From: Escherichia phage vB_ecoS_OzMSK
Length of the DNA stretch: 45,053 bases
Sequence record: PQ659294.1
Reading direction: 5' to 3' (one strand)
The translations under genes and the position numbers were made by a program. Position 1 is the first letter of the stretch, and each line of letters opens with the position of its first letter. Below the pieces are notes generated by a model. That model had not been told where the DNA came from. It worked only from the letters and a program-made list of their open reading frames with translations, and searched no databases. Shown here piece after piece: positions 14,819-35,622 of this stretch.

Positions 14819-17797
14819 ATGGCAACAAATGAATTAGCTGGAATCACACTAGCCGTAGACGTCTCGCAGGTAGACAGAGGTACGCAGTCCCTGCAGAAGT
14901 TCAGGCAGGCAAACCAGCAAGCCGCTTCCGGCATTAGTGAGTTCGTCAATGCTGAGCAGGTTGCTAAAAACCAGGCTAGAGATACCGCTCGCGCACTTGC
15001 TGAGCAACAAGCATCTTTAGCTAAATTGCAAACGGCTATTGACCCAACTGCGGCAAAGTTCCGTAAGCTGCAAGAGGCAGCGGTGGGTCTTGATAAGGCG
15101 TTTGCTGCTGGCGTAGTTCCTGATGAGGAGTTTTTCCGCTTAGGTGAGGCACTTGAAACGCAGAACGCAAAACTTGCTCGATCACGTGCAGCGCTAACTG
15201 AAGAGGGTAGGGCAGCAGCTCAAGCCGCAAAGGATAAGGCAAAGGCAAAGGCTGAAGCTGATAGGTTCATTGCGTCACTTGAGCGTCAGGCTCAGGCGGC
15301 AACATTGACGCGTGAGGAGTACTTAAAATTACAGGCTGCTCAGCTTGGCGTAAGTTCTCAGGCAGCGCCTATTATTGACAGAATCGCCGATGCATCACAG
15401 AAGGCAAACACCCAGCTAATTGCTCAGAGCAAGGCATTTCAACGCTCTGGATTAAGCGCGGGTCAATACAAGGCTGCAATCTCTCAATTGCCAGCGCAGA
15501 TTACAGACATTGGGACATCACTTGCTGGCGGCATTCCGATTTGGCTTATTGCAATTCAGCAAGGCGGGCAAATTAAGGATGCATTTGGAGGTATTGGTAA
15601 CACCTTTAGATTCGCGCTAGCAGCCTTAAATCCATTCAATGTTGCTGTTGGGGTTTTGGGTGGCGCGCTTGTTGCTCTAGGTATCGGTGCTGCCCAGGCA
15701 GAGAGTGAATTCAGAGCATTAAATTCTGCCATTGCGTTCTCAAACAACTCCACAATCGCATCAATCTCGCAGGTTAGAGATTTGGTTAGCTCTGTTTCTG
15801 ATGCTACTGATGCAACCAGAGGACTTGTGACTAGCATCGCAACAAGCCTTATTGAGCAAGGGAACCTTACGCTGACGCAGATTGACAAGATTACTAAATC
15901 TACCGCCAGATGGGCGCAGTTGACAGGTAAGGATGCAAAGGAAATTACTGGTTACTATAACCAGATTGCGAGCGACCCAATTCAAGGACTTGCTGATTTA
16001 GACAAGAGGTTTAACTTCCTTACACAGGGGCAGTTAACAACAATTGAAAGATTGAGAGAGACTAGGGGTGAGGTTGAAGCCGTAACTGCTGCTATTGATA
16101 TATTTAGCAAATCACAGGAGGCAAACCTTAACGATATTGCAGCCCAGCTTACTCCTCTTGAATTGGCCTGGAATGACTTCAGGAAGTACATATCTGATGT
16201 ATGGGATGCAATTAGTCGCAGAACGGTTGGGGCGCTAAACCTGTTTGTTGACGTAATCGCCGGAACAATTGAGCAAATTAGGGTCTTCATCAACCAGGGT
16301 GATGTGCTGATTGGTGAATTCGTAATTAGCGCAACACAGGCACTGCAGAACATCCCCGGCCTTGATGGTGTTGGTGATGATGTTATCAAGGGGCAGCAGA
16401 AGATTATCGATGCAGCTAAGAAGCAAAACATTGAGCTAGAGAAGTCTATCAAGGAGCGCGATGCCAGAATCAGAGAAGGAGAACTTGGTTACGTTACTCG
16501 CAGAGAAAATCAGAATACCAATGAGCAGTCAGGCACTGATGAGGAGTTTGCAAAAAGGAAGAAAGCACTTCAGGATGAACTTGATGCGATCAAGAAGAAC
16601 AGGAAAGAAGAAAATGGTAGGGTTAAAGAGCAAAGAGACCTTACAATTGGTTACGAATCTGGCGTACTTGCACTACAGGCACAACTCAAGGTGCTTCAGG
16701 AAAACAGGGATATTGGCGCAGTAATAAGCAATGAGCGCAAGCAGTATCTTCAGGAGGAGGCTAAATTCAGGATTCTTGAGCAGAGGCAACTTGATGGCTC
16801 AATTACCAAAGAGCAAGCAAGGCTTCTAATTGAAAAGGATAAAGTTCTTGCACTCGCAAGGCAGAAAGCTGAGTTAGGCGATCAGATTGTTTTGCAGGAG
16901 CGCGCCAATAAGTTAGCTGAAGATAACCGCAAGAAGATTCTTCAGATTAACAACGAAGCAAGCAATATTAATTTGGGGGCTGGTTTGTCATCTCGCGAGC
17001 AGCAGAGGGCAAGAGAGATTCAGGCTCTCCAGTCCAATCAGGTTAATGCTGGTGGCTCTCTTGATGATTTTGATTTTCAGCAATTACTGGAAGCAAGAAA
17101 GGAATACTACAAGCAGGAGGATAATCTTAGGTCTGATTGGCAAGCTGGCGTAACATCAACGCTTGCAGACTTGGCTGAGAAATATACAGACTACAATCAG
17201 ATAGCTAAGGATTTAACTGTTGCGGCATTCGATGGAATTACAGACCAGATTACAAACCTTGTAACCACTGGTGAGACCAACTTCAGGGAGTTCACCGCAA
17301 ACATCCTCAAAATGATTGCGAAGATTGCAACTCAGTTACTTTTGGTTAAGGCCATCGAATCAACATTGACTAGTTTTGGTGGTGGAGGAGGTAACGCGTT
17401 TGGCTCAATTGCTTCCGGGTTAGGTTTCGCTGGTGGCGGCTACACTGGTGATGGTGGAAAATATCAGCCAGCAGGAACGGTACACCGAGGTGAGTTTGTA
17501 TTCACAAAAGAAGCGACAAGCAGAATTGGTGTGAAAAACCTTTACGCACTAATGAAAGGTTACGCGAATGGCGGTGTTGTTGGTGGCCCTTCTGGTTATG
17601 CGAATGGTGGATTGGTTTCTGGAGGCGCAGATGTTAATGTTAGCGGGATTACTGTTAGCGTTAATAGTGGGATTGGAAGCAACCCAGAGCAGGCCAAGGC
17701 GCTGCAAAATGGCGTTAAGGCAATCGTAGCTGAAGAGATTGCTCAGTCATTCCAGCAGGGGGGCAGAGCTTATCAGTACCTTCGCGGATTCAACTAA
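14819..17797 (+). CDS. tail tape measure protein
   Basis: 992 aa; long Ala/Gln/Glu-rich predicted coiled coil, hydrophobic central segment, Gly-rich C-terminus; precedes M-L-K-I-J. Confidence 0.9.
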   Translation: MATNELAGITLAVDVSQVDRGTQSLQKFRQANQQAASGISEFVNAEQVAKNQARDTARALAEQQASLAKLQTAIDPTAAKFRKLQEAAVGLDKAFAAGVVPDEEFFRLGEALETQNAKLARSRAALTEEGRAAAQAAKDKAKAKAEADRFIASLERQAQAATLTREEYLKLQAAQLGVSSQAAPIIDRIADASQKANTQLIAQSKAFQRSGLSAGQYKAAISQLPAQITDIGTSLAGGIPIWLIAIQQGGQIKDAFGGIGNTFRFALAALNPFNVAVGVLGGALVALGIGAAQAESEFRALNSAIAFSNNSTIASISQVRDLVSSVSDATDATRGLVTSIATSLIEQGNLTLTQIDKITKSTARWAQLTGKDAKEITGYYNQIASDPIQGLADLDKRFNFLTQGQLTTIERLRETRGEVEAVTAAIDIFSKSQEANLNDIAAQLTPLELAWNDFRKYISDVWDAISRRTVGALNLFVDVIAGTIEQIRVFINQGDVLIGEFVISATQALQNIPGLDGVGDDVIKGQQKIIDAAKKQNIELEKSIKERDARIREGELGYVTRRENQNTNEQSGTDEEFAKRKKALQDELDAIKKNRKEENGRVKEQRDLTIGYESGVLALQAQLKVLQENRDIGAVISNERKQYLQEEAKFRILEQRQLDGSITKEQARLLIEKDKVLALARQKAELGDQIVLQERANKLAEDNRKKILQINNEASNINLGAGLSSREQQRAREIQALQSNQVNAGGSLDDFDFQQLLEARKEYYKQEDNLRSDWQAGVTSTLADLAEKYTDYNQIAKDLTVAAFDGITDQITNLVTTGETNFREFTANILKMIAKIATQLLLVKAIESTLTSFGGGGGNAFGSIASGLGFAGGGYTGDGGKYQPAGTVHRGEFVFTKEATSRIGVKNLYALMKGYANGGVVGGPSGYANGGLVSGGADVNVSGITVSVNSGIGSNPEQAKALQNGVKAIVAEEIAQSFQQGGRAYQYLRGFN

Positions 17798-19742: not shown

Positions 19743-20295
19743 TATTAAGTTAGGCTTGTCTCTAGGCCGCAAGTTTGGAAAGATTCACCAGATGGCAGTG
19801 AATAGCGTGCCAGAGGCTATGCGAGCGCTTTGCTCTCAGATTCCTGCATTCAAGGAGTTCATGAGCAGCCACGTTGGGCAGAACACAAGATACGCAGTCT
19901 TTGTAGATGGTAAAAATGTGAACGAGCATCGAATCTCTGATTTTAGTGCCGTTCAGGAGATACGCATCTTGCCAATCCCGCAAGGCAGAAAGTCCGGCGG
20001 TTTGTTTCAGACAATTTTAGGTGCAGCGCTTATCACGGTTGGCATCTTCACTGGGCAGATTTATCTTGTTGGTGCTGGCGTATCTTTGGCAGCAGGTGGT
20101 ATTGCCCAGCTACTCTCACCGCAGGCAACTGGATTAAAGACCCAGAACAACCAAACAAGCAACAGAGCATCTTACGCATTTGGCTCCGCTGTAAACACGG
20201 TGGCTGCTGGTTATCCTGTTTGCCTTCCTTACGGCTATCGGACGGTTGGAGGATCTGTGTTTAGTGCCGGCAGCTACGCTGAAGATAATGCTTAA
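19723..20295 (+). CDS. tail assembly protein (lambda I-like)
   Basis: 190 aa, hydrophobic Gly-rich C-terminal half, between K-like and J-like genes. Confidence 0.65.
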   Translation: MTQKLIDIKLGLSLGRKFGKIHQMAVNSVPEAMRALCSQIPAFKEFMSSHVGQNTRYAVFVDGKNVNEHRISDFSAVQEIRILPIPQGRKSGGLFQTILGAALITVGIFTGQIYLVGAGVSLAAGGIAQLLSPQATGLKTQNNQTSNRASYAFGSAVNTVAAGYPVCLPYGYRTVGGSVFSAGSYAEDNA

Positions 20296-20301
20296 ATATC
20301 A

Positions 20302-20323
20302 TACCCGCCTAGTGCGGGTTTTT
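20302..20323 (+). terminator. terminator-like hairpin (ACCCGCCTAGTGCGGGT + T6)
   Basis: GC hairpin plus T-run. Confidence 0.55.
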
Positions 20324-20375
20324 TATTTAGTGTAGAATGGCACAAATGATCAAAACAAACATGAGGCTTTGTGAT

Positions 20376-23300
20376 ATGGCTGAAGATATTAAGATTTATG
20401 GTGCTAAAGGCGGCAGCCAGAAGCAGCATCAACCAGTGGAGCAGGAAGACAACCTGATTTCATTAAACAAGGTCAAGGTATTACTTGCGGTTGCTGACGG
20501 CGAGGTTGACCCTAACTTCTCAATGAAAGATTTATACCTTGCTGACGTTCCGGTGCAAAACCAGGATGGTAGCTACAATTATGAGGGTGTTCGCGCTGAG
20601 TTCCGTGCTGGCACGCAGTATCAGGACTATATCGCCGGGCTTGACGGTGCTAACTCAGAGATTCAGGCATCCAGAGAAATCAAGAACGATACCCCGTACA
20701 TCATTGCGGTTAACAATACTCAGCTTTCAGCAATTCGAGTTAAGCTATTCTGGCCTCGACTGGTCAAGCAAGAGAGCAACGGTGACCTGAACGGAACTAC
20801 ATGTGAGTATGCAATTGATCTTTCTGTTAATGGTGGCGCTTATCAGGAATATACTCGCGGAGTTGCTAACGGCAAGACCACTACAGGTTACGACCGCAGC
20901 ATTCGCGTGAACCTTCCGGCTGAATTTGATAGCGCACTGGTTCGCATCCGTAAGATCACACCAGACTCAACAAGTAGCACCCTGGTTAACGGAATGCAGA
21001 TAACAACCTATCAGGAGGTAATCGACGCTAAATTCCGCTATCCGCTTACAGCCCTGGTTTATGTTGAGTTCGGCTCTGACCTTTTCCCTAACGGGATTCC
21101 AACAATCTCAATCAAGAAGAGATGGAAGCTGATTCAGGTCCCAACTAACTACGACCCTGAAACCAGAACTTACAGCGGGACATGGAATGGCCTATTCAAA
21201 ATGGCATGGTCAAACAACCCAGCGTGGGTTCTGTATGACTTAGTGACAAACCGCCGCTACGGTCTTGATCAGCGAGAGTTGGGTGTAGAGATTGATAAGT
21301 GGGGCCTGTATGAAGCCGCGCAATTCTGTGACCAGATGGTTCCTGATGGTAAGGGTGGAATGGAGCCGCGCTACCTGTGCGACATGGTTGTACAGAATAA
21401 AGTTGAGGCTTACACGCTAATTCGTGACATCTGCTCAATCTTCCGTGGCCTGACTTTCTATGACGGCGAAAAGATTGGTATTGTGGTTGATAAGCCACGC
21501 AACCCATCATACATCTTCACGAATGATAACGTTGTTAATGGATTGTTCAGCCGCACATTTGCCAGTGATAAGAGCCTTTACACCACTGCAAACGTTCAGT
21601 TTGATGATGTTGAGAACAACTATCAGCAAGATGTTGAGCCTGTTTTTGAGCTCGAGGCCACTCGCCGATTCGGCTTCAATCCAGTCGACCTTACGGCAAT
21701 CGGCTGCACTCGAAGAAGTGAAGCAAACAGACGCGGCAGATGGCTCCTAAAAACCAATCTGAGAAGCGAAACTATCAGCTTCACCACTGGGTTGGAGGGC
21801 ATGATTCCGATGATTGGCGAGGTGATTGCGGTCAATGATGCTGCATGGTCTAGCAACTATCAGCTAAACCTTTCCGGTCGTATTGAATCAGTTCAGGGGT
21901 TGCAGGTTTTTACCCCGTTTAAAGTTGACGCAGCGCCAGGTGACAGAATTCTTCTGAACAAACCCGACGGAAGCCCTGAAGCAAGAACTATTGCCAGCAT
22001 TTCGGAAGACGGTAGAACCATCAACCTGAACACGGCGTTCAGCTTTGTAGCTCAGCCTGATACTGTGTTCGCAATTGATAAGGATAATCTGGCACTTCAG
22101 CAATATGTTGTGACCGGTATTCAAAAAGCAGATACTGATGGTAAGGACTCATTCCAGTATACGATTACTGCGGTAGAGTACGACCCTAACAAGTATGACG
22201 AGATCGACTACGGCGTTAACATTGCTGACCGCCCGACTTCAATTGTAGAGCCTGACAGATTATCGCCACCAGAAAACCTGACGGTATCAAGCTACAGTAA
22301 GGTTGTTCAGGGTTTATCAGTTGAGACGATGGTTATCGGATGGGATAAGGCTCCATACGCAAAAACCTACAATGTTCAGTGGAGGAAAGAGAATGGCAAC
22401 TGGATTAACGTACCAAGAACAGCTAGTACAGAGGTTGATATCGAAGGTATTTACGCAGGAATCTATGACGTTAGGGTTCGCAGCGTATCAGATACTGAAA
22501 ACGTGTCTGCCTGGTCTGATATTGTAACGGTATCGCTAACTGGCAAGATTGGTCGCCCATCTGCGCCTACGGTTATCACGGCGTCAACTGATGAGGTATT
22601 TGGCATCCGTGTTAAATGGGGATTCCCTGATGGCTCTGGTGATACTGCTTACACTGAGCTTCAGCAGGTTCCTGATAATGGCGATGGTACTTACAATCCT
22701 GATAACGCAAGCTTGCTGACGTTGCTGCCTTATCCAGCCTATGAATACTGGCATACTCCTATTCAGCCAGGTAAGGTTATCTGGTATCGCGCAAGATTGA
22801 TTGACAGAATAGGTAATACGTCTGATTGGTCTAGTTTCGCAAGAGGCATGAGTACTGACGACGAAAACATTATCAATGATTACATCAAAGTTGATATTGA
22901 AGGCTCAGAAGGATTCAAATACCTCGAGCAGAATGCGATTCAAAAGAATCAGGACATTCAGAACCAGGCAGAATCAATTCTTGAGAACGCATTAGCTAAT
23001 GACACTGATGTTCGTCGCATGACTAAGGAGAACGGCAAACGTAAGGCTGAATATGTTCAGGCTGTTAATCTCATAGCCGATGAGACTCAGGCGCGTGTAG
23101 AGGCTCTCACAGCTCTTAAAGCGCAGATAGATGATGAAGTTGTAGCATCGATTACAGAAGTTCAGACAGCGCTAGCCACCGAGACAGAAGCAAGGACTAC
23201 TGCAGACACGGCTCTATCAGCAAGATTGGGTGATAACGAGGCGGCACTAAACCAGAAACTGGATGCTTTCTCTAATGCCACATCCACTGGTGTGCAGTAC

Positions 23301-23762
23301 GGAATTAGTCTTGGCCTTAAATACAATGGACAGACTTATTCATCCGGCATGAGTATGGAGCTTGTTGGCACTGGTGGTAATGTTCGCAGTCAGTTCATCT
23401 TTGACGCAAACAGATTCGCAATCAGTAATGGTATTGGTTCTGGCTCCGGTCAATGGCAGCTCCCCTTCGTTGTCGAGAACGGAAACGTAATGATCCAAAG
23501 CGCAGTAATCGGAGATGGCTCAATTACTAACGCGAAGATTGGTAACAGGATTCAATCTAACAGCTACGTTCCTGGCTCTCAAGGATGGGCGATTGACAAG
23601 TCAGGAAGTGCGGAATTTAGTAACGCCACTGTAATGGGTAACCTGTATGCCAATAATGGTAACTTCGCATTTAACGGAACCAATAACACGGTTCAGATTA
23701 ACAATAACGGAATCACTGTAAACTTACCGAACGGAGGAAGAGTGGTAGTTGGAGTGTGGTAA
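20376..23762 (+). CDS. tail tip / central fibre protein (lambda J-like host specificity protein)
   Basis: ~1128 aa; N-terminal region aligns by eye with lambda J; ATG 20376 chosen over 20337 because of GAGG RBS and J-like N-terminus. Confidence 0.85.
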   Translation: MAEDIKIYGAKGGSQKQHQPVEQEDNLISLNKVKVLLAVADGEVDPNFSMKDLYLADVPVQNQDGSYNYEGVRAEFRAGTQYQDYIAGLDGANSEIQASREIKNDTPYIIAVNNTQLSAIRVKLFWPRLVKQESNGDLNGTTCEYAIDLSVNGGAYQEYTRGVANGKTTTGYDRSIRVNLPAEFDSALVRIRKITPDSTSSTLVNGMQITTYQEVIDAKFRYPLTALVYVEFGSDLFPNGIPTISIKKRWKLIQVPTNYDPETRTYSGTWNGLFKMAWSNNPAWVLYDLVTNRRYGLDQRELGVEIDKWGLYEAAQFCDQMVPDGKGGMEPRYLCDMVVQNKVEAYTLIRDICSIFRGLTFYDGEKIGIVVDKPRNPSYIFTNDNVVNGLFSRTFASDKSLYTTANVQFDDVENNYQQDVEPVFELEATRRFGFNPVDLTAIGCTRRSEANRRGRWLLKTNLRSETISFTTGLEGMIPMIGEVIAVNDAAWSSNYQLNLSGRIESVQGLQVFTPFKVDAAPGDRILLNKPDGSPEARTIASISEDGRTINLNTAFSFVAQPDTVFAIDKDNLALQQYVVTGIQKADTDGKDSFQYTITAVEYDPNKYDEIDYGVNIADRPTSIVEPDRLSPPENLTVSSYSKVVQGLSVETMVIGWDKAPYAKTYNVQWRKENGNWINVPRTASTEVDIEGIYAGIYDVRVRSVSDTENVSAWSDIVTVSLTGKIGRPSAPTVITASTDEVFGIRVKWGFPDGSGDTAYTELQQVPDNGDGTYNPDNASLLTLLPYPAYEYWHTPIQPGKVIWYRARLIDRIGNTSDWSSFARGMSTDDENIINDYIKVDIEGSEGFKYLEQNAIQKNQDIQNQAESILENALANDTDVRRMTKENGKRKAEYVQAVNLIADETQARVEALTALKAQIDDEVVASITEVQTALATETEARTTADTALSARLGDNEAALNQKLDAFSNATSTGVQYGISLGLKYNGQTYSSGMSMELVGTGGNVRSQFIFDANRFAISNGIGSGSGQWQLPFVVENGNVMIQSAVIGDGSITNAKIGNRIQSNSYVPGSQGWAIDKSGSAEFSNATVMGNLYANNGNFAFNGTNNTVQINNNGITVNLPNGGRVVVGVW

Positions 23763-23767
23763 TAAAT

Positions 23768-23795
23768 AAAGCCCCTTAATTGGGGCTTTTCTTTT
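23768..23795. terminator. bidirectional terminator between J (plus) and the RBP candidate (minus)
   Basis: AAAGCCCCTTAATTGGGGCTTTT flanked by A-run and T-run. Confidence 0.65.
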
Positions 23796-24765
23796 AGTAG
23801 AAGTTTGGAATGAATGGAAGTTCCATTGATATGTTCGTGTCGAAAGGAAACCGAGCGCCTGATTGCGTCGAGTAGTTACCAATTACAGAGCCAGGAACAG
23901 CCCTAACAGAGCCTCCAGACATGCAGACCCCCTTGTACCTTAAGTTGTTATAACCTCCAGTAACTCTAGTCGTAGCGCCGCATCTAAGCAGCGGGAAGAA
24001 TCCACCATTTATTGACTGGTATCCATTATTGATCTGAATGAATCCACCAAGAACAAATGGGCGGCGAACACTTGAAAAAACAATCTGACCAGAACTATTC
24101 GACATTGTTAGTCCTGGTCCGGCTGGTGGGGGTTCATTTCTGAATATCACCAACTGAACATAAGTACTTGCCGCAATATCATCTGTACCTCCGTAGGTTA
24201 TATCCCTACACCATATTGTTGATCCATCTGATTCAAGTGATACGTTTGGATTATCCCACTTGCCGAATGGTATGCCGCTAACTGGTAGCGATGCCGCCCT
24301 GTTAACCTGTATTCCTCCAACCCATGCTGCTGACATTAGTCTAGAGTTGCTTGATATAGCAAGGAAATCAGTTGAGTTTTCAACGAGTATCCCTGGGCTT
24401 GATGAAGATGATGCTGGTAGAATTTCAAAGCAATTCCCAGCAAAGTCAATTATTCGACCTTTAGCACCATTGAAGTTGCTGAGCGTTATCCTACCAGTGC
24501 CGTCATTTACCTTTTGAAACCCGTTCATGTAATAAACTTCGGGTATAACATCATAAGCGTCAACGTGGACTGCCTTCGTTGGTATGCAGAAAGCCGTAGA
24601 ACCGGGGGACATTGTCAATCCAAAATCCCACGAACTTGCTGGGGTTGAAAGTCCATTGGTATTTATTGATCCAGTCACAGCAGGCGCCCTTAATCCTGCC
24701 GTTATTTCCATCGCTGGTCTTCCGTCATTGAGGTCAATCAATATACCCTGCGGCATTATTTCCAC
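23794..24765 (-). CDS. putative receptor-binding protein (323 aa)
   Basis: Gly/Ser/Asn/Thr-rich beta-type composition; convergent with J and co-transcribed downstream of a lipoprotein gene. Confidence 0.4.
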
Positions 24766-25001
24766 TCCTTACTGCCATGATCTGCAACAGATCCGCCGTA
24801 ACCTCCGCCAGCTTTGCTTTCAATGCCAGCGTATCGAATATCAACCTCACCAGCCGGAACAACCAAACCGCCTTTCCACTTAGCTACGCACACGCCGTTT
24901 GCTTGCGTTGCACACCAACCATCAGGACGGGGACCTGATGAACAACCAACTGCCATGATTACTGCTGCTGCGATGATTGCTGATTTGATGAAGTTATTCA
25001 T
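24756..25001 (-). CDS. small lipoprotein, superinfection-exclusion candidate (Cor/Llp-like)
   Basis: Signal peptide with lipobox AVGC ([23 protein letters not shown]); ATG at 25001 with AAGGA RBS; own class-A cassette upstream. Confidence 0.55.
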
Positions 25002-25036
25002 TTTGTATTCCTTAGTAATTTCGTTTCGATGGAGTA

Positions 25037-25082
25037 ATAGTATCGCATCCTTGCGATCAGTGTTTAGCAATTCGTGCTATTT
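25037..25082 (-). promoter_or_regulatory. class-A promoter-like cassette inside the 3' end of the methylase gene, ahead of the lipoprotein gene
   Basis: Minus-strand AAATAGCACGAATTGCTAAA then TACTAT at the conserved spacing; the motif encodes the methylase C-terminus INSTNC and its stop. Confidence 0.5.
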
Positions 25083-25756
25083 ATTCTTTCTTTCGCAATT
25101 TTAAAGTAATCCGAATCAAGCTCTATACCTATAAAGCTCCTTCTTGTATTGACGCATGCCACGCCAGTGGTTCCGCTACCCATGCAGTTATCAAGAACTG
25201 TATCCCCTTCGTTTGTATATGTATTAATCAGGTATTCCATTAACGCTACGGGCTTTTGGGTAGGGTGTGCGCCTGTTTCTGTTGCGAATTCAAGAATTGT
25301 GGTTGGGTATCCAGTAACTGTTTGTCTTGTTGTCTTACTGCACTCATTGTAATTTCCGCGATTGGTTCTTGAAACCATCACATCCGTTTGCCTTGTCCCT
25401 TGCGGGTTGTATGTTGGCTGATTTGCATAAAACACCGCTATATCTTCAGTGTTTATAAGTGGTTGCTTTTTCGCATTTAGATGTCCAGTAGGTTTTGATT
25501 TTTTCCAAATCCAGCAATATTTAAATTCCTTTAGATTGCTTGTTATCAGCGCGGACGTGAAAGGCTGTGCGCAAGTAAGAACAACCGCCCCACGGCTTAT
25601 GCGGCGGTATTGACGCCAAAGTAACCGCAAATCGATGATGACATCCCATCTGTTTCTCGTTGTTCCATACGGCAAATCACATAAAATAAGGTCTATACTC
25701 TTGTCTGGGATATCATTCATCATCTCTAAGCAGTCGCCATTCATTAATTTAATCAT
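25064..25756 (-). CDS. dam: DNA N6-adenine methyltransferase (Dam-like)
   Basis: Motif IV DLPYG (ILCDLPYGT) precedes motif I-like [10 protein letters not shown], as in N6-adenine methyltransferases; 230 aa. Confidence 0.8.
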
Positions 25757-25790
25757 TTTCTATCTCTCTCTTCGTGTTTTTGATGTGGTA

Positions 25791-25835
25791 ATAATACAGC
25801 CGCCGCTGCGGAATGTCTTTAGCTATTCGTGCTAT
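25791..25835 (-). promoter_or_regulatory. class-A promoter-like cassette upstream of the methylase operon
   Basis: Minus-strand AATAGCACGAATAGCTAAA then TATTATTACC and a conserved leader. Confidence 0.5.
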
Positions 25836-25839
25836 TGTA

Positions 25840-26150
25840 TACGCGTAATCGATGTAACTCGATGTATACAATTTCATCCGCGGAAAATGGTATACGCGCT
25901 GTTACGCCAATTTACGCATTAGTTACATTGAAATATCTATATATATCAACCTTTTACTCTTATTATTATTATTATACATATTACTGTGTATATCATGTAA
26001 CTACTTCTATAGAGCGTTCCGGTTATAATTTTAATATCATGTGGATTTATACAGTATTGCGTGGCAGCTATACTAATGCACCCCCTGCAAGAAACGGTAT
26101 ACACGATATACACGATGGTTACATTTAGCTATAGCTGGGATGAGATGCCA
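25840..26150. repeat. AT-rich repeat region with palindromes (TACGCGTA, GTATAC) and (TTA)n; diverged copy of window region ~120..460
   Basis: Shared blocks ACGCA(A/T)TGGTTACAT...ATATCTATATATATCAACC...TTATTATTATTAT and GGTTACATT(G/T)AGCTATA(T/G)CTGGG in both regions. Confidence 0.6.
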
Positions 26151-26297
26151 TTTTACGTAACAAGTGGCAATGCCTACACGGAATTACAATGATTCGCACG
26201 TAAACTTAAATCAACGATTGGCAAAACCAATTGGACTGGTTACCGTGCTGAATATATAGTTAACCCATCTAAAGCAAACAACCAGAGAGATACAGAA

Positions 26298-26492
26298 ATG
26301 ACCCACTACATTATCAAAGAGAAAAACAACGCACTGTTCGGTGATTGCTACTTTGGTGGCCCTGCTGGATACACCACAGATAAGAGTGAAGCTGACAGAT
26401 TCGAGACTAAAGAAGAAGCCCGAGATGTGCTGACTGGCTACTTCACCGAGGAAGACCTCAAGTCTGTTAAAGTAGTTAAGGTTAAGGAATAG
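26298..26492 (+). CDS. hypothetical protein (64 aa)
   Basis: ORF with AGAGAGA RBS-like sequence. Confidence 0.45.
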   Translation: MTHYIIKEKNNALFGDCYFGGPAGYTTDKSEADRFETKEEARDVLTGYFTEEDLKSVKVVKVKE

Positions 26493-26495
26493 GAT

Positions 26496-27461
26496 ATGAG
26501 CTTTAAAGTTTTTACGAGAAATGAGCTAAGCAACGAGGCTTACCACTCTGAGACTGATCACATCTCAGGATCCTCACTTGTCGAGATTATTCAGGGTTCA
26601 CCAGCCAAGTGGAAATTCAAGCAGCGCAATAGCGATAGCAAGGCTCTTAAGTTTGGCACCCTAAGCCACACGATGATTTTAGAGCAAGATGTATTTGATA
26701 AAGAATACCTTCGAGCTACAGACCTTGACGCGATTGAAGGATTAATTACAAGCCAGGCTGGACTGTCGGCAGCACTTAAAAAAAATGGCGTGGCTGGCAC
26801 GTCCGGGAAGGGCTGTAGCGAGCTCGTGGAGATGATGTACAGCTCTGGCGAGGATTGGCCTGTTAAATGGCTAATTGAGCAGCAGGAGAGCGCTCAAGCG
26901 CTTGTGGAGGGTAAGGAGCTAGTTAGTGCCGCTGACTACGATAAAGTTGTGGCTATGCGTGAGGTTCTTTGCAATATACCGGCATATAATGCAATCGTGA
27001 ATAGTGAGACAGCACAAAAAGAGCTATCAATATTCGGTGAGATTCTTGGTGTCGGCGTGAAGATTCGAATTGACCACGTTGACGTTGTTGATGGGGTGGT
27101 AATGATCAACGATTATAAAACTACCGCAGACGCAAGCCCGGAAGGGTTTGGTAAATCGGCATTCTCGCACGGATATCTTGCAAAAATGGCATTGCAGCGA
27201 GATCTGTTTGTGAAGGCATTTAACGAGAAGCGCAAGGTTGTTGTGGGATTACTGGCACAGGAGAAGGTAGAGCCATACTTGCCAATGCGATACACGCTAA
27301 CAGATGAACAGCTACGAATCGGTAGATTGCAGTATCTTGAGGCGCTTGCCACTTACAAGAAGTGCAAGGAGCTTGATATCTGGCCTGGCTACTCAAATGG
27401 CATTACAGAGCAAGAGCTATTGGTTCCTGAGTGGGCATTAAAACAATACAAAGAAATCTAA
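26496..27461 (+). CDS. PD-(D/E)XK-type exonuclease (putative recombination exonuclease)
   Basis: 321 aa; candidate nuclease motif D..INDYK (RIDHVDVVDGVVMINDYKT); immediately upstream of Erf-like and SSB genes. Confidence 0.5.
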   Translation: MSFKVFTRNELSNEAYHSETDHISGSSLVEIIQGSPAKWKFKQRNSDSKALKFGTLSHTMILEQDVFDKEYLRATDLDAIEGLITSQAGLSAALKKNGVAGTSGKGCSELVEMMYSSGEDWPVKWLIEQQESAQALVEGKELVSAADYDKVVAMREVLCNIPAYNAIVNSETAQKELSIFGEILGVGVKIRIDHVDVVDGVVMINDYKTTADASPEGFGKSAFSHGYLAKMALQRDLFVKAFNEKRKVVVGLLAQEKVEPYLPMRYTLTDEQLRIGRLQYLEALATYKKCKELDIWPGYSNGITEQELLVPEWALKQYKEI

Positions 27462-28847: not shown

Positions 28848-31298
28848 TTAATAAATATTTACATCTGGAGAAATTCCAACGCAAGTCCAGCGCGAGAACT
28901 TGGCATCATAAACGAATGACATTCCAATTTGTCTCCCCTCAGATGGAGTTGTGAATGAGCCAACTCTAAACTTATTGCTAAATGAAACGGATGGACGCCG
29001 GCCGCCTGAAAGGTTGTAAATTATGAAGTCTATCCTCTGTGCATCTCTTGCGTTATCCTGAACATCAATAACTACAGGACTTGAATCAATTACAACGGTT
29101 GCAAGACTTGTTCTTAGTGGGTTAAATAGAATACTACCACCAGATAGCTGAACCCTTTTTTGAACGGGGTTAGAAGAATCCGTGTACAACCCTGTGTTTA
29201 TATTATACAAAGCCTCCCATGAATTCAGTTTTGAGTCATCAATCACTGTTGCATGCTGCCCAAATAGTATAGTCCCTTCTACATGGTTTCCTGAAGCTCC
29301 ATTATAAAAATCAAAACCAGAAGCTGATCCACCAACAAACCTATTAGCTCTAGCTCCGTTAACTTGAATTGATGGAGACTGAAAACCTGACTTCAGGCCA
29401 TTGAACAAGTTTCCTGTCGCCGTCTTCCTAAGAACGACGTCACCACCAGAGTTGACCTCAAGGTCGCAACCAATAACAGTGTTAGTTACTGCTGTTATGC
29501 CTAGGTCTGACTCATGACCGAAAGAAAACCCATACTTATTTCCCTCGCTGGTTCCACCAATAAATGTCGTATTACTGCAGAATGTAGCCTCAATTCCTGA
29601 TTCTGTTACATGCTCGCAAGTTGGGTTAATAAAAAGATCTGCAGATGTGCCGCGGAAGTTCACAGCGCCAGCCTCTGCGTCAATTAATATGCCGTACGTA
29701 GGCGTCGTTGTGAAGGTCTCAACGTTACCAGAGCACACAAAGTTATTATGCACGCATAGCTGAGTCCACCAGCAGTGTAAACCAGCCCTTCTAATGTTCG
29801 TAGCCATTAGGTTGTCAAAGCATGATGATATGACACCCCTTAATGAAAAGCCATCACTAGCATACCCATTCCCATCGACAATGATGTTGCTCATATATGA
29901 GTTGTATGCCCAATAATCTAGGTTTACATCCCTATGATCCATTTGGATGACGTAATCATGAGGTCCGCTAGTTAGTGAGATTCTTGCGCCTTTCTCACCG
30001 ATAATTGTTGCTGGCCTCAGAAAGTTTAATGGCTGAGATGTAAGATAATTACCTTTAGGAATATGTATAGCAATAGCGTTGTTTCTAGATGCCTCAACAG
30101 CGGCAAGCAATGCCTGAGTATCATCTGTTACACCATCACCAACAGCGCCAAAGTCCTTCTTAATATCGACATGAGTAAGTAAAGCGTTTACCTCTGGCTT
30201 TGAGTAAACATCAAGATTTGTTCTTGCTGCTGACTTATTTGCAACATCAGAGAAATTCAATGATTTTTGAAAAGTCTCATTTTTTGAATAAACATCAAGA
30301 TTTGTTCTTGCTTCTGACTTATTTGCAACATCAGAGAAATTCAATGATTTTTGAAAAGTCTCATTTTTTGAATAAACATCAAGTAAGTTTCTAGCCCTCG
30401 ATGCCGTAGCTCCACCTCCGGACTTGCCAGCCTCAACCATCACCATTTCCCTACCTGGTGCATAAACCCTGCTTCCGGGCGCTCCCACAAACTGAATGTA
30501 AATCTCCCTGCTATACTGGTTGCTTGTTGAAGATTGGCCTACAACTCGCAAGGAGTGCGTGGTTGTATTGCTTGACTTTGATATTACCTGAATGCATAAA
30601 GCAGCAATTGATGTTCCAAATGTTGAGATTATGTCATTTGGAGCATTTATCATTGATGAAACGTTAACCATATAAAGGCCACCGGATTTAAAAACAAATT
30701 CCTGCCAATCAAAATTGCTTATCAATGGCGTAGTGTCTGTCGCCAATCCATATCCGGCAAGAGTTACCAACGTTCCGGCATCCCCGGCGTTATTAATTGC
30801 TTTAATCGTCTGATCTCTTGCTGCAGTGGTCGTGTCTCTTGCACTAATAGCAGTAGCGGCGCTCTCTTCGGCAGCAATCTGGCTAGCAAGAGCCTCAGCA
30901 GCTCCAGTGGTGGATTGTTTTGCAAGCTGCTCGAAGAGAGGCCAGTCGAAAGTGTCTTGACCAATAAATTGCAACAATCCTTCGATTGATGTCTCCTTTG
31001 ACTGGTAGTAACGCAAAGTCTCTGCTACATCCTGAGCCAACCCCTGAACGGTAATTCCATCGTGCGCAAGAATTGCATAACCAGTTCCGGAAGGAACAGT
31101 TTCAGAGTTAGGGTTGTAAACATTAATCTGAGTATCGCTGATGATTTCAGAGATGGTATAAATCTTCAGGGGGCTGGTTTTAAAAATAATGGTTGCACCT
31201 ACGCGAATAAGTGTAAGCGGTGCTTTCCATGTTGTACCCACGCCAGTTACCTCGCCATTTGCGGCCAGCGACGCTGTTCCTAAGTCATAAATTGCCAT
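28848..31298 (-). CDS. lateral tail fibre / tailspike with right-handed beta-helix (pectate-lyase-like) domain
   Basis: 816 aa from ATG 31298 (GGAG RBS); motif DIKKDFGAVGDGVTDDTQAL typical of pectate-lyase-type tailspikes; internal 28-aa tandem repeats. Confidence 0.75.
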   Translation of the reverse strand: MAIYDLGTASLAANGEVTGVGTTWKAPLTLIRVGATIIFKTSPLKIYTISEIISDTQINVYNPNSETVPSGTGYAILAHDGITVQGLAQDVAETLRYYQSKETSIEGLLQFIGQDTFDWPLFEQLAKQSTTGAAEALASQIAAEESAATAISARDTTTAARDQTIKAINNAGDAGTLVTLAGYGLATDTTPLISNFDWQEFVFKSGGLYMVNVSSMINAPNDIISTFGTSIAALCIQVISKSSNTTTHSLRVVGQSSTSNQYSREIYIQFVGAPGSRVYAPGREMVMVEAGKSGGGATASRARNLLDVYSKNETFQKSLNFSDVANKSEARTNLDVYSKNETFQKSLNFSDVANKSAARTNLDVYSKPEVNALLTHVDIKKDFGAVGDGVTDDTQALLAAVEASRNNAIAIHIPKGNYLTSQPLNFLRPATIIGEKGARISLTSGPHDYVIQMDHRDVNLDYWAYNSYMSNIIVDGNGYASDGFSLRGVISSCFDNLMATNIRRAGLHCWWTQLCVHNNFVCSGNVETFTTTPTYGILIDAEAGAVNFRGTSADLFINPTCEHVTESGIEATFCSNTTFIGGTSEGNKYGFSFGHESDLGITAVTNTVIGCDLEVNSGGDVVLRKTATGNLFNGLKSGFQSPSIQVNGARANRFVGGSASGFDFYNGASGNHVEGTILFGQHATVIDDSKLNSWEALYNINTGLYTDSSNPVQKRVQLSGGSILFNPLRTSLATVVIDSSPVVIDVQDNARDAQRIDFIIYNLSGGRRPSVSFSNKFRVGSFTTPSEGRQIGMSFVYDAKFSRWTCVGISPDVNIY
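30199..30385. repeat. 84-bp direct tandem repeat (two copies plus a partial third) inside the tail fibre gene
   Basis: AAACATCAAG recurs at 30206, 30290 and 30374; copies differ at about one position; encodes ARTNLDVYSKNETFQKSLNFSDVANKSE twice. Confidence 0.85.
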
Positions 31299-31318
31299 TG
31301 TGTAAATTCTCCATTTGT

Positions 31319-31338
31319 AAAATAGCACGAATTGCTAA
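31319..31338 (+). promoter_or_regulatory. class-A motif copy in plus orientation, 21 nt upstream of the minus-strand tail fibre start
   Basis: AAATAGCACGAATTGCTAAG; the only copy oriented against the adjacent downstream gene. Confidence 0.4.
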
Positions 31339-32337: not shown

Positions 32338-32383
32338 ACTATACACAATGTATAGCGCCACTGTTTATCAATTCGTGCTATTT
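32338..32383 (-). promoter_or_regulatory. class-A promoter-like cassette upstream of primase
   Basis: Minus-strand AAATAGCACGAATTGATAAA then TATAGT; motif overlaps the stop of the upstream gene. Confidence 0.5.
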
Positions 32384-32860
32384 CCCTTGCTCTTTAGCTT
32401 TTCGCGCTGCCTCGTTAGCGGCCTTAATCTTGCGCCATGATCGACACTCTGTCTTGGTGGCTAATTCAGCCTCAGTAACAACACGCAGCATGTGACGCTT
32501 TTTGCAACGAAGAGTTAGCGGCTTCCCGTTACCGTCGAATTGCAAATCTGGTCGGCAGAATGTGGCGCGAAAACCTTCTCCATTTCGCTTGTAGTAGTTG
32601 TGCGACAGCTGGGCGCCACGTGCCGATATCATGCCGCGCTTAAACCATTGTTCTACAGCCTGTGGTGTTACCTTTAACTGCTTTGCGATATTCGCCTTTG
32701 TGCCGAAGAAATCAAGAACTATCTCCAGGCGTGCCCGTAACCCTGCTCTTACTTCATCCTTTAAAACGTAGTAACCTGAAGGTCGTTTACGTTGCTTTTT
32801 GTCTTCAGTGCGGATAGTTCCGTTGTTGCCGTTAATGGTTCTCTTGTCGACTGTATTCAT
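32378..32860 (-). CDS. putative DNA-binding protein (160 aa, basic, HTH-like segment)
   Basis: Highly basic; segment IAKQLKVTPQAVEQWFKRG resembles a helix-turn-helix. Confidence 0.4.
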   Translation of the reverse strand: MNTVDKRTINGNNGTIRTEDKKQRKRPSGYYVLKDEVRAGLRARLEIVLDFFGTKANIAKQLKVTPQAVEQWFKRGMISARGAQLSHNYYKRNGEGFRATFCRPDLQFDGNGKPLTLRCKKRHMLRVVTEAELATKTECRSWRKIKAANEAARKAKEQGK

Positions 32861-34956: not shown

Positions 34957-35372
34957 ATATTACAGACAAAGTTGATTACATTGAGTTTTACCCGGGCCCG
35001 GTTAAGTCATGTCCTAAAGAGGATGACGAACAAATCTTTTGTTCTGATTGGGTTAAGTATAACTACCCGGATATGGTATTTTTCCACTGCGTGAATGAGG
35101 GTAAGAAAACCATTGGTCAAGCAAGAAAGGACCAGGCTAAAGGATTGCTTAAAGGGGTTTCGGACTGCTTATTCCTTATACCTGAATCACTGCGAGGCAA
35201 ATACCCATTTGGCGCTATAGAGCTAAAGAGAGCAGGTAAAACGCAAGCTAGCCCAGTTAGCGATGAGCAGAAGTCATTCCTAAAAAGCGTAAGAGAATCA
35301 GGTGGCTTCTCCGCAGTAGCCTATGGCAGAGGTGGCTTTCTTGCAGCATTCGCAGAGATGATTCGAAAATAG
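34953..35372 (+). CDS. VRR-NUC domain nuclease (PD-(D/E)XK fold)
   Basis: 139 aa; motif DCLFLIPE...GAIELKRAGK matches the D..E.K signature; ATGA overlap with helicase. Confidence 0.55.
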   Translation: MNITDKVDYIEFYPGPVKSCPKEDDEQIFCSDWVKYNYPDMVFFHCVNEGKKTIGQARKDQAKGLLKGVSDCLFLIPESLRGKYPFGAIELKRAGKTQASPVSDEQKSFLKSVRESGGFSAVAYGRGGFLAAFAEMIRK

Positions 35373-35576: not shown

Positions 35577-35622
35577 AAATAGCACGAATTGCTAAAGAGG
35601 AATCGGTGAGGTGGTGTATTAT
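35577..35622 (+). promoter_or_regulatory. class-A promoter-like cassette (second of the tandem pair)
   Basis: Near-identical to 35367..35412 including GAATCGGTGAGGTGGTGTATTATCA. Confidence 0.5.

Follow-up and report, generated by a model that had tools for sequence, protein, structure and literature searches.

The three minus-strand genes that face the end of the J-type tail gene raise the question of what decides which host bacteria this phage can kill. The window, meaning the whole stretch of DNA analysed (45,053 nucleotides, PQ659294.1), comes from the T1-like coliphage Msk/OzMSK of the Drexlerviridae (Rtp-like); it matches phage Msk (MW057918) at 100%, its gene coordinates are the same as in the OzMSK annotation, and the OzMSK and MSK genomes are reported to differ by 9 nt. 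Known as a contaminant in laboratories and in industry, OzMSK lyses FhuA-deficient, "T1-resistant" strains of E. coli B. The locus that combines a receptor-binding protein (RBP) with superinfection exclusion has an established position in Drexlerviridae, downstream of gpJ, and the locus described here is already known as the published host-recognition module of MSK/OzMSK, consisting of the RBP, a lipoprotein that blocks LptD and a methylase gene inserted upstream. A sequence-only reading had arrived at an RBP, a lipoprotein blocking the phage's own receptor, a preceding methylase and a second promoter cassette for the lipoprotein, and this core is supported. The model preferred here, to which we assign a probability of about 0.88, is that the genes form a host-recognition and self-exclusion module of a T1-like coliphage into the head of which a methylase gene has been inserted.

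Three open reading frames of the window (23794..24765, 24756..25070 and 25064..25756) lie in the same orientation on the minus strand, just as the sequence-only reading had described them, and each has a strong Pfam match (DUF6453, E = 5.7e-138; PF24052, E = 8.7e-38; and PF01555, E = 7.5e-26, respectively), which excludes chance open reading frames. Its description of overlapping gene ends is correct for one junction, at which the stop codon of the lipoprotein gene overlaps the ATG of the RBP gene by 1 nt (TAATG), but not for the other, where the methylase and lipoprotein genes are separated by a 62-nt spacer if the lipoprotein has its 81-aa start. The J-type central tail fibre or tip attachment gene on the plus strand (20337..23762, 1141 aa; FNIII-A_GpJ, Phage_Tail_Tip and Phage-tail_3 domains; phrog_31, central tail fiber J) ends at 23762 and is convergent with the RBP gene, which ends at 23794. 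Between the two ends the terminator scan found a bidirectional intrinsic terminator hairpin (AAAGCCCC-TTAATT-GGGGCTTT, 23768..23789) with T runs on both strands, which is common to J and the minus-strand operon; the homologous sites of SU57 and AKS96 carry a terminator annotation. The scan gave no credible terminator between the three minus-strand genes. A sub-threshold match of the hairpin to sraL, the only Rfam match within 23500-26500 at E <= 1, was dismissed as noise.

The frame nearest to J had been read as a 323-aa protein convergent with J; the convergence stands, but the length does not, for the RBP gene (OzMSK_038, 23794..24756, minus strand) most likely starts at the ATG at 24756-24754 and encodes 320 aa. 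The ATG has a Shine-Dalgarno sequence (AAGGAG, 24770-24765) 8 nt upstream, the GTG at 24765 that would give 323 aa overlaps this same Shine-Dalgarno sequence, and the 320-aa start agrees with the annotations of homologues and with the N-terminus of the solved homologue. The proposal that this frame encodes a receptor-binding protein was borne out by comparison with known RBPs: the match to DUF6453 (PF20051) covers model positions 1-291 of 291, and residues 5-323 of the open reading frame align with residues 2-321 of PDB chain 9RPT_C (E = 3.7e-65), the cryo-EM-solved RBP of phage Oekolampad, with full-length matches also to chain C of 9RPW and of 9RQI (Oekolampad RBP bound to LptDE). The fold of the RBP is settled by these full-length matches to solved chains. 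Identity to the Oekolampad protein is 41.4% over 320/320 residues, within the published family criterion for LptD-binding RBPs (>30% identity at >99% coverage), and identity to alleles of the Rogue1/AHP24/T145P1 type is 85-96%. The protein belongs to the LptD-binding RBPs (DUF6453) by this homology, which includes a solved LptD binder, and also by position, its gene being convergent with J and overlapped at its start by a lipoprotein gene. Black et al. (2025) named this OzMSK gene as the LptD-RBP, found that two LptD mutant strains were not infected by OzMSK, and proposed about three loop groups for LptD-binding RBPs. Details of the receptor contacts are not transferable to the OzMSK protein, because its identity to the solved homologue is no more than 41% and because AlphaFold3 models published for Rtp45 and the complexes were wrong or inaccurate.

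Existing labels point elsewhere. The 320-aa protein falls in phrog_1265, which PHROGs annotates as "membrane protein" in the moron category, its homologues carry the RefSeq name "membrane protein", and the paper describing MSK regards a tail fibre, a homologue of Rtp43, as the determinant of host specificity; taken together, these labels would make the protein a membrane protein or a host-takeover moron and leave J itself to bind the receptor. Such an assignment is exceedingly improbable, given that the protein has no hydrophobic or transmembrane segment (the maximum 19-residue Kyte-Doolittle value is 0.96), that it is homologous over its full length to a protein whose structure with LptDE has been solved, that LptD mutants resist OzMSK, and that the allele type of the RBP locus tracks receptor specificity across Drexlerviridae. 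In the literature the RBP is thought to dock on the J-type protein. The SDS-PAGE "proteome" of the MSK paper is uninformative about the presence of the RBP in virions, because its bands were assigned by size only, without mass spectrometry.

The open reading frame 24756..25070 encodes 104 aa if translation starts at a TTG and 81 aa if it starts at the ATG at 25001, and the candidate superinfection-exclusion lipoprotein gene is placed at 24756..25001 (minus strand, 81 aa) with a Shine-Dalgarno sequence, TAAGGA, at 25014-25009. The lipobox AVGC of the earlier description is present, the signal peptide ending, as read by eye, in AVG|C20 with S21 at the +2 position, and the protein matches PF24052 (Phage_lipoprotein). 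NCBIfam returned no matches for either the lipoprotein or the RBP. Among solved lipoproteins only Rtp45 matches the 81-aa protein (9RPS_D, E = 3e-34; 59/80 identical residues, 74%), and membership of the Rtp45 type follows from this homology together with the lipobox cysteine and a Cys30-Cys38 pair. Rtp45, in which Cys30 and Cys38 form a disulfide, has been solved bound to LptDE (9RPS), and the structure shows its superinfection-exclusion mechanism to be steric displacement of an LptD loop rather than allostery. The earlier expectation that a lipoprotein encoded next to the RBP gene would block the phage's own receptor in the outer membrane agrees with 74% identity to this solved LptDE-binding exclusion lipoprotein, and by analogy to Rtp45 the 81-aa lipoprotein of this phage is predicted to exclude superinfection.

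The lipoprotein is far more conserved than the RBP beside it: identity is 74% to Rtp45 versus about 39% to Rtp44, and in phage 12397I the lipoprotein is 81% identical to that of the present phage, the RBP only 41%. Such a difference fits an exclusion that would act on the receptor and not on a particular RBP. As for nomenclature, the OzMSK annotation lists the lipoprotein as "hypothetical" despite its close homology to Rtp45. The gene that the MSK paper calls "MSK_000046 lipoprotein (cor)" adjoins holin (044) and lysozyme (045) and, given these neighbours, may be a spanin gene rather than the gene of the 81-aa lipoprotein.

Upstream of the lipoprotein gene, a predicted orphan beta-class DNA methyltransferase gene (25064..25756, minus strand) encodes 230 aa. 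Its product scores 91.9 bits against PF01555 (N6_N4_Mtase), for which the cut-off is 26.7, and in four homologues motif IV (D27-L-P-Y30) and motif I (M192-G-S-G-T-T-G198) are invariant; a score above the gathering threshold and the order of the motifs, IV of the D/S-P-P-Y type before I of the FxGxG type, place it in the beta class of PF01555. The nearest phage homologues, 76% identical, are in Xanthomonas and Salmonella phages, and the best solved relatives are an adenine methyltransferase of H. pylori (5HFJ) and CcrM (6PBD). A role as one half of a restriction-modification pair was rejected, the operon having no nuclease gene. The protein is probably an orphan amino-methyltransferase of the N6-adenine kind, and its role would most plausibly be to shield phage DNA from some restriction systems.

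The methylase had been called "Dam-like" by the sequence-only reading, a designation that found no support: PF01555 is the only Pfam family matched at E <= 0.01, and in NCBIfam no Dam model matches, the only matches being sub-threshold ones to CcrM (GANTC) and PRK11524. The Dam enzymes of E. coli and T4 we take to be members of PF02086, and that of T1 a member of PF05869. That the gene nevertheless encodes a true Dam-type methylase of adenine in GATC is distinctly unlikely; the aspartate of motif IV (DLPY) suits N6-adenine enzymes, one homologue is annotated "dpnA", the depositors of 5HFJ, the best solved match, called their protein DpnA, and the MSK paper labels the gene an adenine methyltransferase, but neither PF02086 nor PF05869 was returned, the CcrM and PRK11524 matches are far below their cut-offs, and the members of PF01555, the beta-class family to which the protein does belong, have many different specificities. 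GATC is depleted threefold (0.31) in Msk, but equally so in ACG-M12, which has no methylase, and GATC statistics were rejected as a clue to specificity because this methylase-free phage shows the same bias.

On either side of the methylase gene lies a copy of a promoter-like element about 70 nt long, termed the class-A cassette, of which the genome has 12 copies. The 20-nt core of the cassette has six matches in the window at <=3 mismatches, against none expected, and its 18-nt box recurs in all 12 copies at <=3 mismatches and in fixed register; at 10 of the 12, a Shine-Dalgarno sequence and start codon follow on the same strand 25-41 nt downstream of the -10-like hexamer. Within the box is the dyad TAGCA-N5-TGCTA, whose centre lies some 42 nt upstream of the inferred start. 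The internal cassette (25021..25082, minus strand), which the sequence-only reading had placed in the 3' end of the methylase gene, is real: it has a perfect 18/18 box (ATAGCACGAATTGCTAAA, 25080-25063) that contains the methylase stop codon (TAA, 25066-25064), so that the last codons of the methylase (S-T-N-C-stop) are encoded by the box, then a 20-nt spacer, the -10-like hexamer TACTAT (25042-25037) and the conserved leader TACTCCATCGAAACGAAA, and it stands upstream of the lipoprotein gene. The C-terminal tail of the methylase is common to the protein of IMM-001 only. The upstream cassette (25775..25837, minus strand) has the box ATAGCACGAATAGCTAAA at 25835-25818 and the arrangement AAGACA-17-TATTAT, with the -10 hexamer at 25796-25791.

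A sigma-70 scan reported a 9/12 promoter-like site at 25819..25791 in the upstream cassette; at its 9-of-12 threshold it did not report the internal cassette, which, compared by eye with sigma-70 hexamers at 16-18 nt spacing, reads TAAACA-18-TACTAT (8/12) with the conserved box at about -50 to -33. By itself the scan is no proof, because its count of promoter-like sites was not above that of shuffled controls. The cassette has no canonical -35 hexamer at 17-nt spacing, TTGCTA being 22 nt from the -10-like hexamer; its activity may therefore depend on an activator, or the element may be something other than a simple sigma-70 promoter. In all four relatives that were aligned (SU57, IMM-001, ACG-M12 and AKS96, from two subfamilies) a cassette is kept upstream of the lipoprotein gene, and across the five phages the length of the spacer changes but box, -10-like hexamer and leader stay conserved. 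This conservation, and the position of the cassettes relative to genes, support a putative promoter function; its activity, and the early timing that the sequence-only reading suggested, are predictions. A search of the literature for the motif string, and of papers on T1-like phages for promoter descriptions, did not find the element.

The internal cassette could instead be a recombination scar left by insertion of the methylase gene, with all three genes expressed from the upstream cassette alone. Read-through would suffice for this, no terminator separating the methylase and lipoprotein genes; the generic promoter scan is silent on the internal cassette, and TACTAT is the only -10-like hexamer in the cassette family with C at the third position. 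It is rather unlikely all the same, since the internal box is perfect, better than the upstream copy; since relatives that have no insert possess just one cassette upstream of the lipoprotein gene, and the internal cassette is collinear with it; since the insert-bearing phages IMM-001 and ACG-M12 keep good -10-like hexamers at this cassette (TATAGT and TATGAT, respectively); and since the box, hexamer and leader have been conserved although the spacer was free to vary. A functional internal promoter is the preferred interpretation.

The same comparison reveals a slot between the cassettes in which genes are swapped, a small new point. Its contents differ among close relatives: where Msk has its methylase gene, IMM-001 has a methylase gene of only 58% identity and ACG-M12 an unrelated gene of 101 aa, while the slot is empty in SU57 and AKS96. 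The 3' end of the inserted gene enters the box of the next cassette in Msk and IMM-001, as it does in ACG-M12 to judge by position. In more than 20 relatives homology stops at 25081-25082, the 5' edge of the internal box. SU57 has a single cassette, immediately upstream of its lipoprotein gene, and the upstream cassette of the present phage is collinear with it. A tentative extension, on balance doubtful, is that class-A cassettes serve as portable linkers for regulation and recombination that mark the exact borders of the slot. The cassettes may further be controlled by a phage DNA-binding protein, a candidate being the 160-aa helix-turn-helix protein encoded at 32378-32860. If all this were true, recombination from promoter to promoter would be a route by which T1-like phages acquire genes for defence evasion, and any gene so acquired would immediately share the control of the exclusion and RBP genes. 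The swappable, cassette-bounded methylase, the greater conservation of the lipoprotein than of the RBP and the lipoprotein's continued status as "hypothetical" in OzMSK are three small points that go beyond the literature searched.

The module is predicted to work as follows. The RBP would be the terminal receptor-binding protein, hung non-covalently on the J-type tail tip, and loops at one end of it would insert into the extracellular face of the barrel of LptD, a component of the lipopolysaccharide translocon LptDE, as in the solved homologue; this insertion would commit the phage to injection of its DNA. After export and lipidation at Cys20, the lipoprotein would be targeted to the outer membrane and reside in its inner leaflet; there, in the manner of Rtp45, it would attach to LptD from the periplasm, in between LptE and LptM. 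A hairpin of the lipoprotein, pushed up the lumen of the barrel, would displace extracellular loop 4, leaving RBPs unable to bind. Exclusion of this kind would protect infected cells and stop the loss of progeny phage on cell debris. Translation of the lipoprotein and RBP genes is coupled through TAATG. Transcription would run from the upstream cassette (start at about 25785) through the three genes to the terminator at 23768-23789, and the methylase gene would have been captured between two copies of the conserved cassette, the second start (about 25030, at the internal cassette) being the putative ancestral promoter of the lipoprotein-RBP pair.

Among known systems, the closest to the RBP are the DUF6453 LptD-binding RBPs of Oekolampad/Bas18 (9RPT, 9RPW, 9RQI) and AugustePiccard/Bas01, together with Rtp44 and Rogue1_0039. 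All are of the same size (320-327 aa), and the genes of this family are likewise convergent with and directly downstream of gpJ, with a lipoprotein gene adjoining; the OzMSK protein differs in being only 41% identical to the Oekolampad RBP and 39% to Rtp44, and its LptD-contacting loops may differ. The lipoprotein shares with Rtp45 the positions of C20, Cys30 and Cys38, the LptD-pairing strand 30-35 (CATQA[N/S]), the position of its gene and the 1-nt overlap with the RBP gene; unlike Rtp45, it has a five-residue Gly-rich insertion near the C-terminus, where Rtp45 reads K-----GSSGS, and its partner RBP is only about 39% identical to Rtp44.

The methylase resembles other orphan phage methyltransferases of PF01555 in its order of motifs, its length of about 230 aa and its stand-alone gene. 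It differs from the solved beta-class enzymes (5HFJ and 6PBD) in that only its C-terminal 70 residues align confidently with them, and the Xanthomonas and Salmonella phages that have its 76%-identical relatives are unrelated to the present phage and carry the gene in quite different contexts. Mobile promoter cassettes, such as the PeSL elements of T4-type phages, have reportedly been described by Juhala et al. in 2000 and Arbiol et al. in 2010. The slot is like these elements, and like morons, in that the variable gene has a conserved promoter-like element on either side, at which homology between genomes breaks off exactly; the element here nevertheless differs in sequence from the T4-type PeSL, for it has no stem-loop and combines a dyad box (TAGCA-N5-TGCTA) with a -10-like hexamer and a conserved leader.

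The sequence-only reading had likened the lipoprotein to that of T5, and the functional part of the comparison stands: in T5 (pb5 and Llp), as in T1 or phi80 (Cor), an RBP gene lies beside the gene of a small lipoprotein of the outer membrane, which puts the phage's own receptor out of action from within the periplasm. The comparison fails in homology, none to T5 Llp or T1 Cor being detectable, since PF24052 is the only Pfam family matched by the lipoprotein at E <= 0.01 and DUF6453 is the only other one of the pair; in mechanism, since that published for Rtp45 is steric displacement of a loop and not long-range allostery; and in the receptor itself, which in the T5 and T1/phi80 systems is the TonB-dependent transporter FhuA and here is LptD.

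The 2.2-kb region studied is identical (100% by megablast) to Escherichia phage Msk (MW057918, 45,053 bp), an Rtp-like member of the Drexlerviridae that, like its near twin OzMSK, carries the module described here; MSK and OzMSK have been reported to be 9 nt apart, OzMSK being a laboratory contaminant. An ORF scan found the three minus-strand genes of the sequence-only reading, and none of them is a chance reading frame: Pfam assigns the receptor-binding protein (RBP) gene (23794..24756) to DUF6453 (E=5.7e-138), the lipoprotein gene (24756..25001; 81 aa) to PF24052, Phage_lipoprotein (E=8.7e-38), and the methylase gene (25064..25756; 230 aa) to PF01555, N6_N4_Mtase (E=7.5e-26), the latter two having the same coordinates in the supplementary annotation of vB_EcoS_OzMSK. 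Convergence with the gene of the 1141-aa J-type central tail fibre (20337..23762, +) is seen in the ORF, Pfam and PHROGs data, and a terminator scan placed a bidirectional hairpin terminator at 23768-23789, between J and the minus-strand transcription unit. Overlapping gene ends had been proposed throughout the module; read in the sequence, only the lipoprotein stop and the RBP start share bases (TAATG), and with the 81-aa lipoprotein starting at ATG 25001 (Shine-Dalgarno TAAGGA) the methylase and lipoprotein genes are 62 nt apart. Once gene boundaries are corrected the observation is confirmed, and its interpretation is supported in everything except the label "Dam".

The RBP had been assigned 323 aa from GTG 24765, which falls within the Shine-Dalgarno sequence AAGGAG (24770-24765) and is unlikely to be the start. 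The corrected start, ATG 24756, lies 8 nt 3' of that sequence, corresponds to Met1 in the solved homologue and gives 320 aa, the length of the annotated product in the relatives SU57 and ACG-M12 and in OzMSK. The proposed receptor-binding function is supported by a match (E=3.7e-65; residues 5-323 in the 323-aa numbering versus 2-321) to chain C of 9RPT, 9RPW and 9RQI, the sole set of solved chains matched. They show the RBP of Bas18 (phage Oekolampad) bound to Shigella LptDE, as resolved by cryo-EM, and inserted deeply into an LptD barrel in the open state. By tblastn, the RBP is 41% identical to that of Oekolampad and 85-96% identical to the Rogue1, AHP24, Jk06, P817 and T145P1 alleles. The same gene, OzMSK_038, was named a putative LptD-RBP by Black et al. 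(2025), who found that OzMSK plates on K-12 deltaRM and not on two LptD mutant derivatives, and that deletion of LptD loop 11 results in a resistant BL21 strain. The position of the gene agrees with Maffei et al. (2021) and a 2026 preprint, in which the locus directly 3' of gpJ encodes the RBP and exclusion factor of Drexlerviridae and LptD is the target of one of four allele families there. The label "membrane protein" that PHROGs and RefSeq give the RBP finds no support, as a hydrophobic segment is absent (maximum 19-residue Kyte-Doolittle score 0.96).

The methylase gene is an insertion in a variable slot upstream of the lipoprotein gene (window 25002-25837 compared). In SU57, which shares the RBP and lipoprotein genes, the slot is empty, the intergenic region directly adjoining the lipoprotein gene, and AKS96 resembles SU57; the slot is occupied in ACG-M12 by an unrelated 101-aa gene and in IMM-001 by a methylase with only 58% identity to that of Msk. 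Megablast homology to more than 20 relatives ends at query 1382-1383 (window 25081-25082), which is exactly the 5' edge of the box of a promoter-like repeat, the class-A cassette. Where the slot is filled (Msk, IMM-001 and ACG-M12), the insert has a cassette copy on either side and its 3' end enters the downstream box; the two copies of ACG-M12 are at 25752 and 25435, and the 101-aa gene overlaps the downstream box at its 3' end. In Msk the perfect box of the internal cassette encodes the methylase tail S-T-N-C-stop (AGC ACG AAT TGC TAA), which is common only to the IMM-001 enzyme at the same locus and is absent from homologues elsewhere.

The class-A cassette is a genuine repeat family: in the window, its 20-nt core has six matches with at most three mismatches versus 0 expected, and its 18-nt box, ATAGCACGAATTGCTAAA, has 12 copies at the same threshold, located at 1853, 2899, 27462, 31322, 35369, 35579 and 39148 on the plus strand and at 25080, 25835, 32381, 44154 and 44994 on the minus strand. 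Full copies (~70 nt) consist of ATAGCACGAATTGCTAAA, a variable spacer of 20-21 nt, a TATNAT-type hexamer and a conserved leader, TAC..CATCGAAACGA; a Shine-Dalgarno sequence and start codon follow 25-41 nt past the hexamer on the same strand in all but two copies, those at 35369 (followed by a tandem copy at 35579) and 31322 (box alone). The cassette family lacks a canonical -35 element at 17 nt, and the box contains a dyad, TAGCA-N5-TGCTA, centred ~42 nt 5' of the start predicted from the -10-like hexamer. The copy preceding the methylase gene (box 25835-25818, -) is at the same site as a promoter scan report, AAGACA-17-TATTAT. The internal copy that had been noticed at the methylase 3' end (box 25080-25063, -; hexamer 25042-25037) proves to belong to the family. 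Its hexamer, TACTAT, is odd, which leaves room for this copy to be weak or inactive; when the regions upstream of the lipoprotein genes of Msk, SU57, IMM-001, ACG-M12 and AKS96 were aligned, the box, -10-like hexamer, leader and Shine-Dalgarno sequence were kept and the spacer varied, the pattern that would be expected from a functional promoter. The internal cassette is best read as the original promoter of the lipoprotein and RBP genes, which would have survived the insertion of a gene upstream; we infer its promoter activity and the "early" timing that had been suggested for it. No cassette copy is present in the structural module of Msk (~3000-23762); ACG-M12 has 14 copies, three of them inside the structural gene block (5966, 17152, 18846), and an HNH endonuclease gene lies just downstream of the one at 17152. 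A 160-aa protein (32378-32860, -) with a helix-turn-helix-like segment (ANIAKQLKVTPQAVEQWFKRGMIS), the 3' end of whose gene abuts the cassette preceding the primase gene, is a speculative candidate for binding the dyad; in ACG-M12 a gene annotated "transcriptional regulator" has the corresponding position beside the primase gene.

The methylase belongs to the compact beta-class amino-methyltransferases, motif IV (D27-L-P-Y30) preceding motif I (M192-G-S-G-T-T-G), and both motifs are invariant among homologues. The description "Dam-like" is not upheld: PF01555 is the only Pfam family at E<=0.01, a search that returned neither PF02086 nor PF05869, the families of E. coli and T4 Dam and of T1 Dam, respectively. 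NCBIfam matches to CcrM and PRK11524 are far under their cut-offs, and the best solved relatives, an H. pylori adenine methyltransferase and CcrM, align only over the C-terminal ~70 residues. The motif IV aspartate favours N6-adenine as the predicted chemistry. No 4-mer palindrome in the window is more depleted than GATC (66 observed versus 215 expected, ratio 0.31), but the ratio is likewise 0.31 in ACG-M12, which has no annotated methylase; therefore the depletion is a lineage trait, and is ruled out as a pointer to methylase specificity. Among phage proteins, the closest homologues (76%) come from Xanthomonas and Salmonella phages, where the gene contexts are unrelated, and this methylase is the only one in the OzMSK annotation.

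Other repeats also occur in the window. One, AT-rich, non-coding and ~300-400 nt long, has two copies (120-520 and 25830-26230; ~75% identity) with almost identical cores, GGTTACAT..AATATCTATATATATCAACC..TATTATTATTATTAT and ATGGTTACATT.AGCTATA.CTGGG, each copy 5' of a plus-strand operon (starts 572 and 26298); a 99-aa "hypothetical" ORF annotated in OzMSK within the second copy (25829..26128, +) looks spurious. A tandem 84-nt duplication (30199-30366, 98% identity) repeats the peptide NLDVYSKNETFQKSLNFSDVANKS within an 826-aa ORF (28848-31328, -) resembling a lateral tail fibre or tailspike. The OzMSK authors described repeat-driven variability in a predicted tailspike protein of 816 aa; provided that the two genes are the same, this duplication is probably what they saw.

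Kuravirus-type podophages (SU10, NJ01 and others) encode distant homologues of the RBP and of the lipoprotein at separate loci ~45 kb apart. In SU10 these are gp019 (L009:3902-4933; DUF6453, E=2.2e-23), between the genes of tail needle gp18 and ejection protein gp20, and SU10_0104 (L010:1926-2207; PF24052, E=2.6e-36); gp19 did not come up when the text of the paper on the SU10 virion structure was searched. As both homologues are present, such phages may also engage LptD. Klebsiella siphophages of ~49-52 kb have, by tblastn, RBP and lipoprotein homologues of 31% and 64% identity, respectively, ~10 kb apart rather than adjacent (for instance, 19794-20747 and 30395-30574 in PP889486).

Everything important about the module is already known: the architecture of the locus has been in print since 2021 and the RBP of OzMSK and its LptD dependence since 2025, the year in which mechanisms were also solved for homologues of the RBP and of the lipoprotein, and the MSK and OzMSK papers had noted the methylase and the lipoprotein. 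What may be new is confined to the cassette dyad and the gene-swap slot that the cassettes bound, neither of which was found described in the searchable literature.

The lipobox reported for the 81-aa lipoprotein is present, with the cysteine at position 20 and Ser at +2, which by the rules of Lol sorting implies an outer-membrane location. The gene is still annotated "hypothetical protein" in OzMSK. The original MSK paper (PMC8421802) describes MSK_000046 as a "lipoprotein (cor), resembles Rtp45"; because MSK_000044 is a holin and MSK_000045 a lysozyme, MSK_000046 may be a spanin instead of the 24756-25001 gene. The lipoprotein is 74% identical (59/80) to Rtp45, the exclusion lipoprotein of phage Rtp (PDB 9RPS chain D), and across LptD-targeting phages it is far more conserved than the RBP (81% versus 41% for vB_EcoS-12397I). 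Cys30 and Cys38, disulfide-bonded in Rtp45, are kept in the Msk protein, and the LptD-pairing strand (residues 30-35) is almost unaltered. In the solved complex, Rtp45 contacts LptD from the periplasm, between LptE and LptM, and its hairpin rises through the lumen and moves extracellular loop 4 as much as 20 Å, preventing RBP binding. The analogy drawn with T5 holds in its logic, but not in homology, as Pfam returns no family besides PF24052, nor in mechanism: the receptor is LptD, not FhuA, and the action published for Rtp45 is steric, not allosteric.
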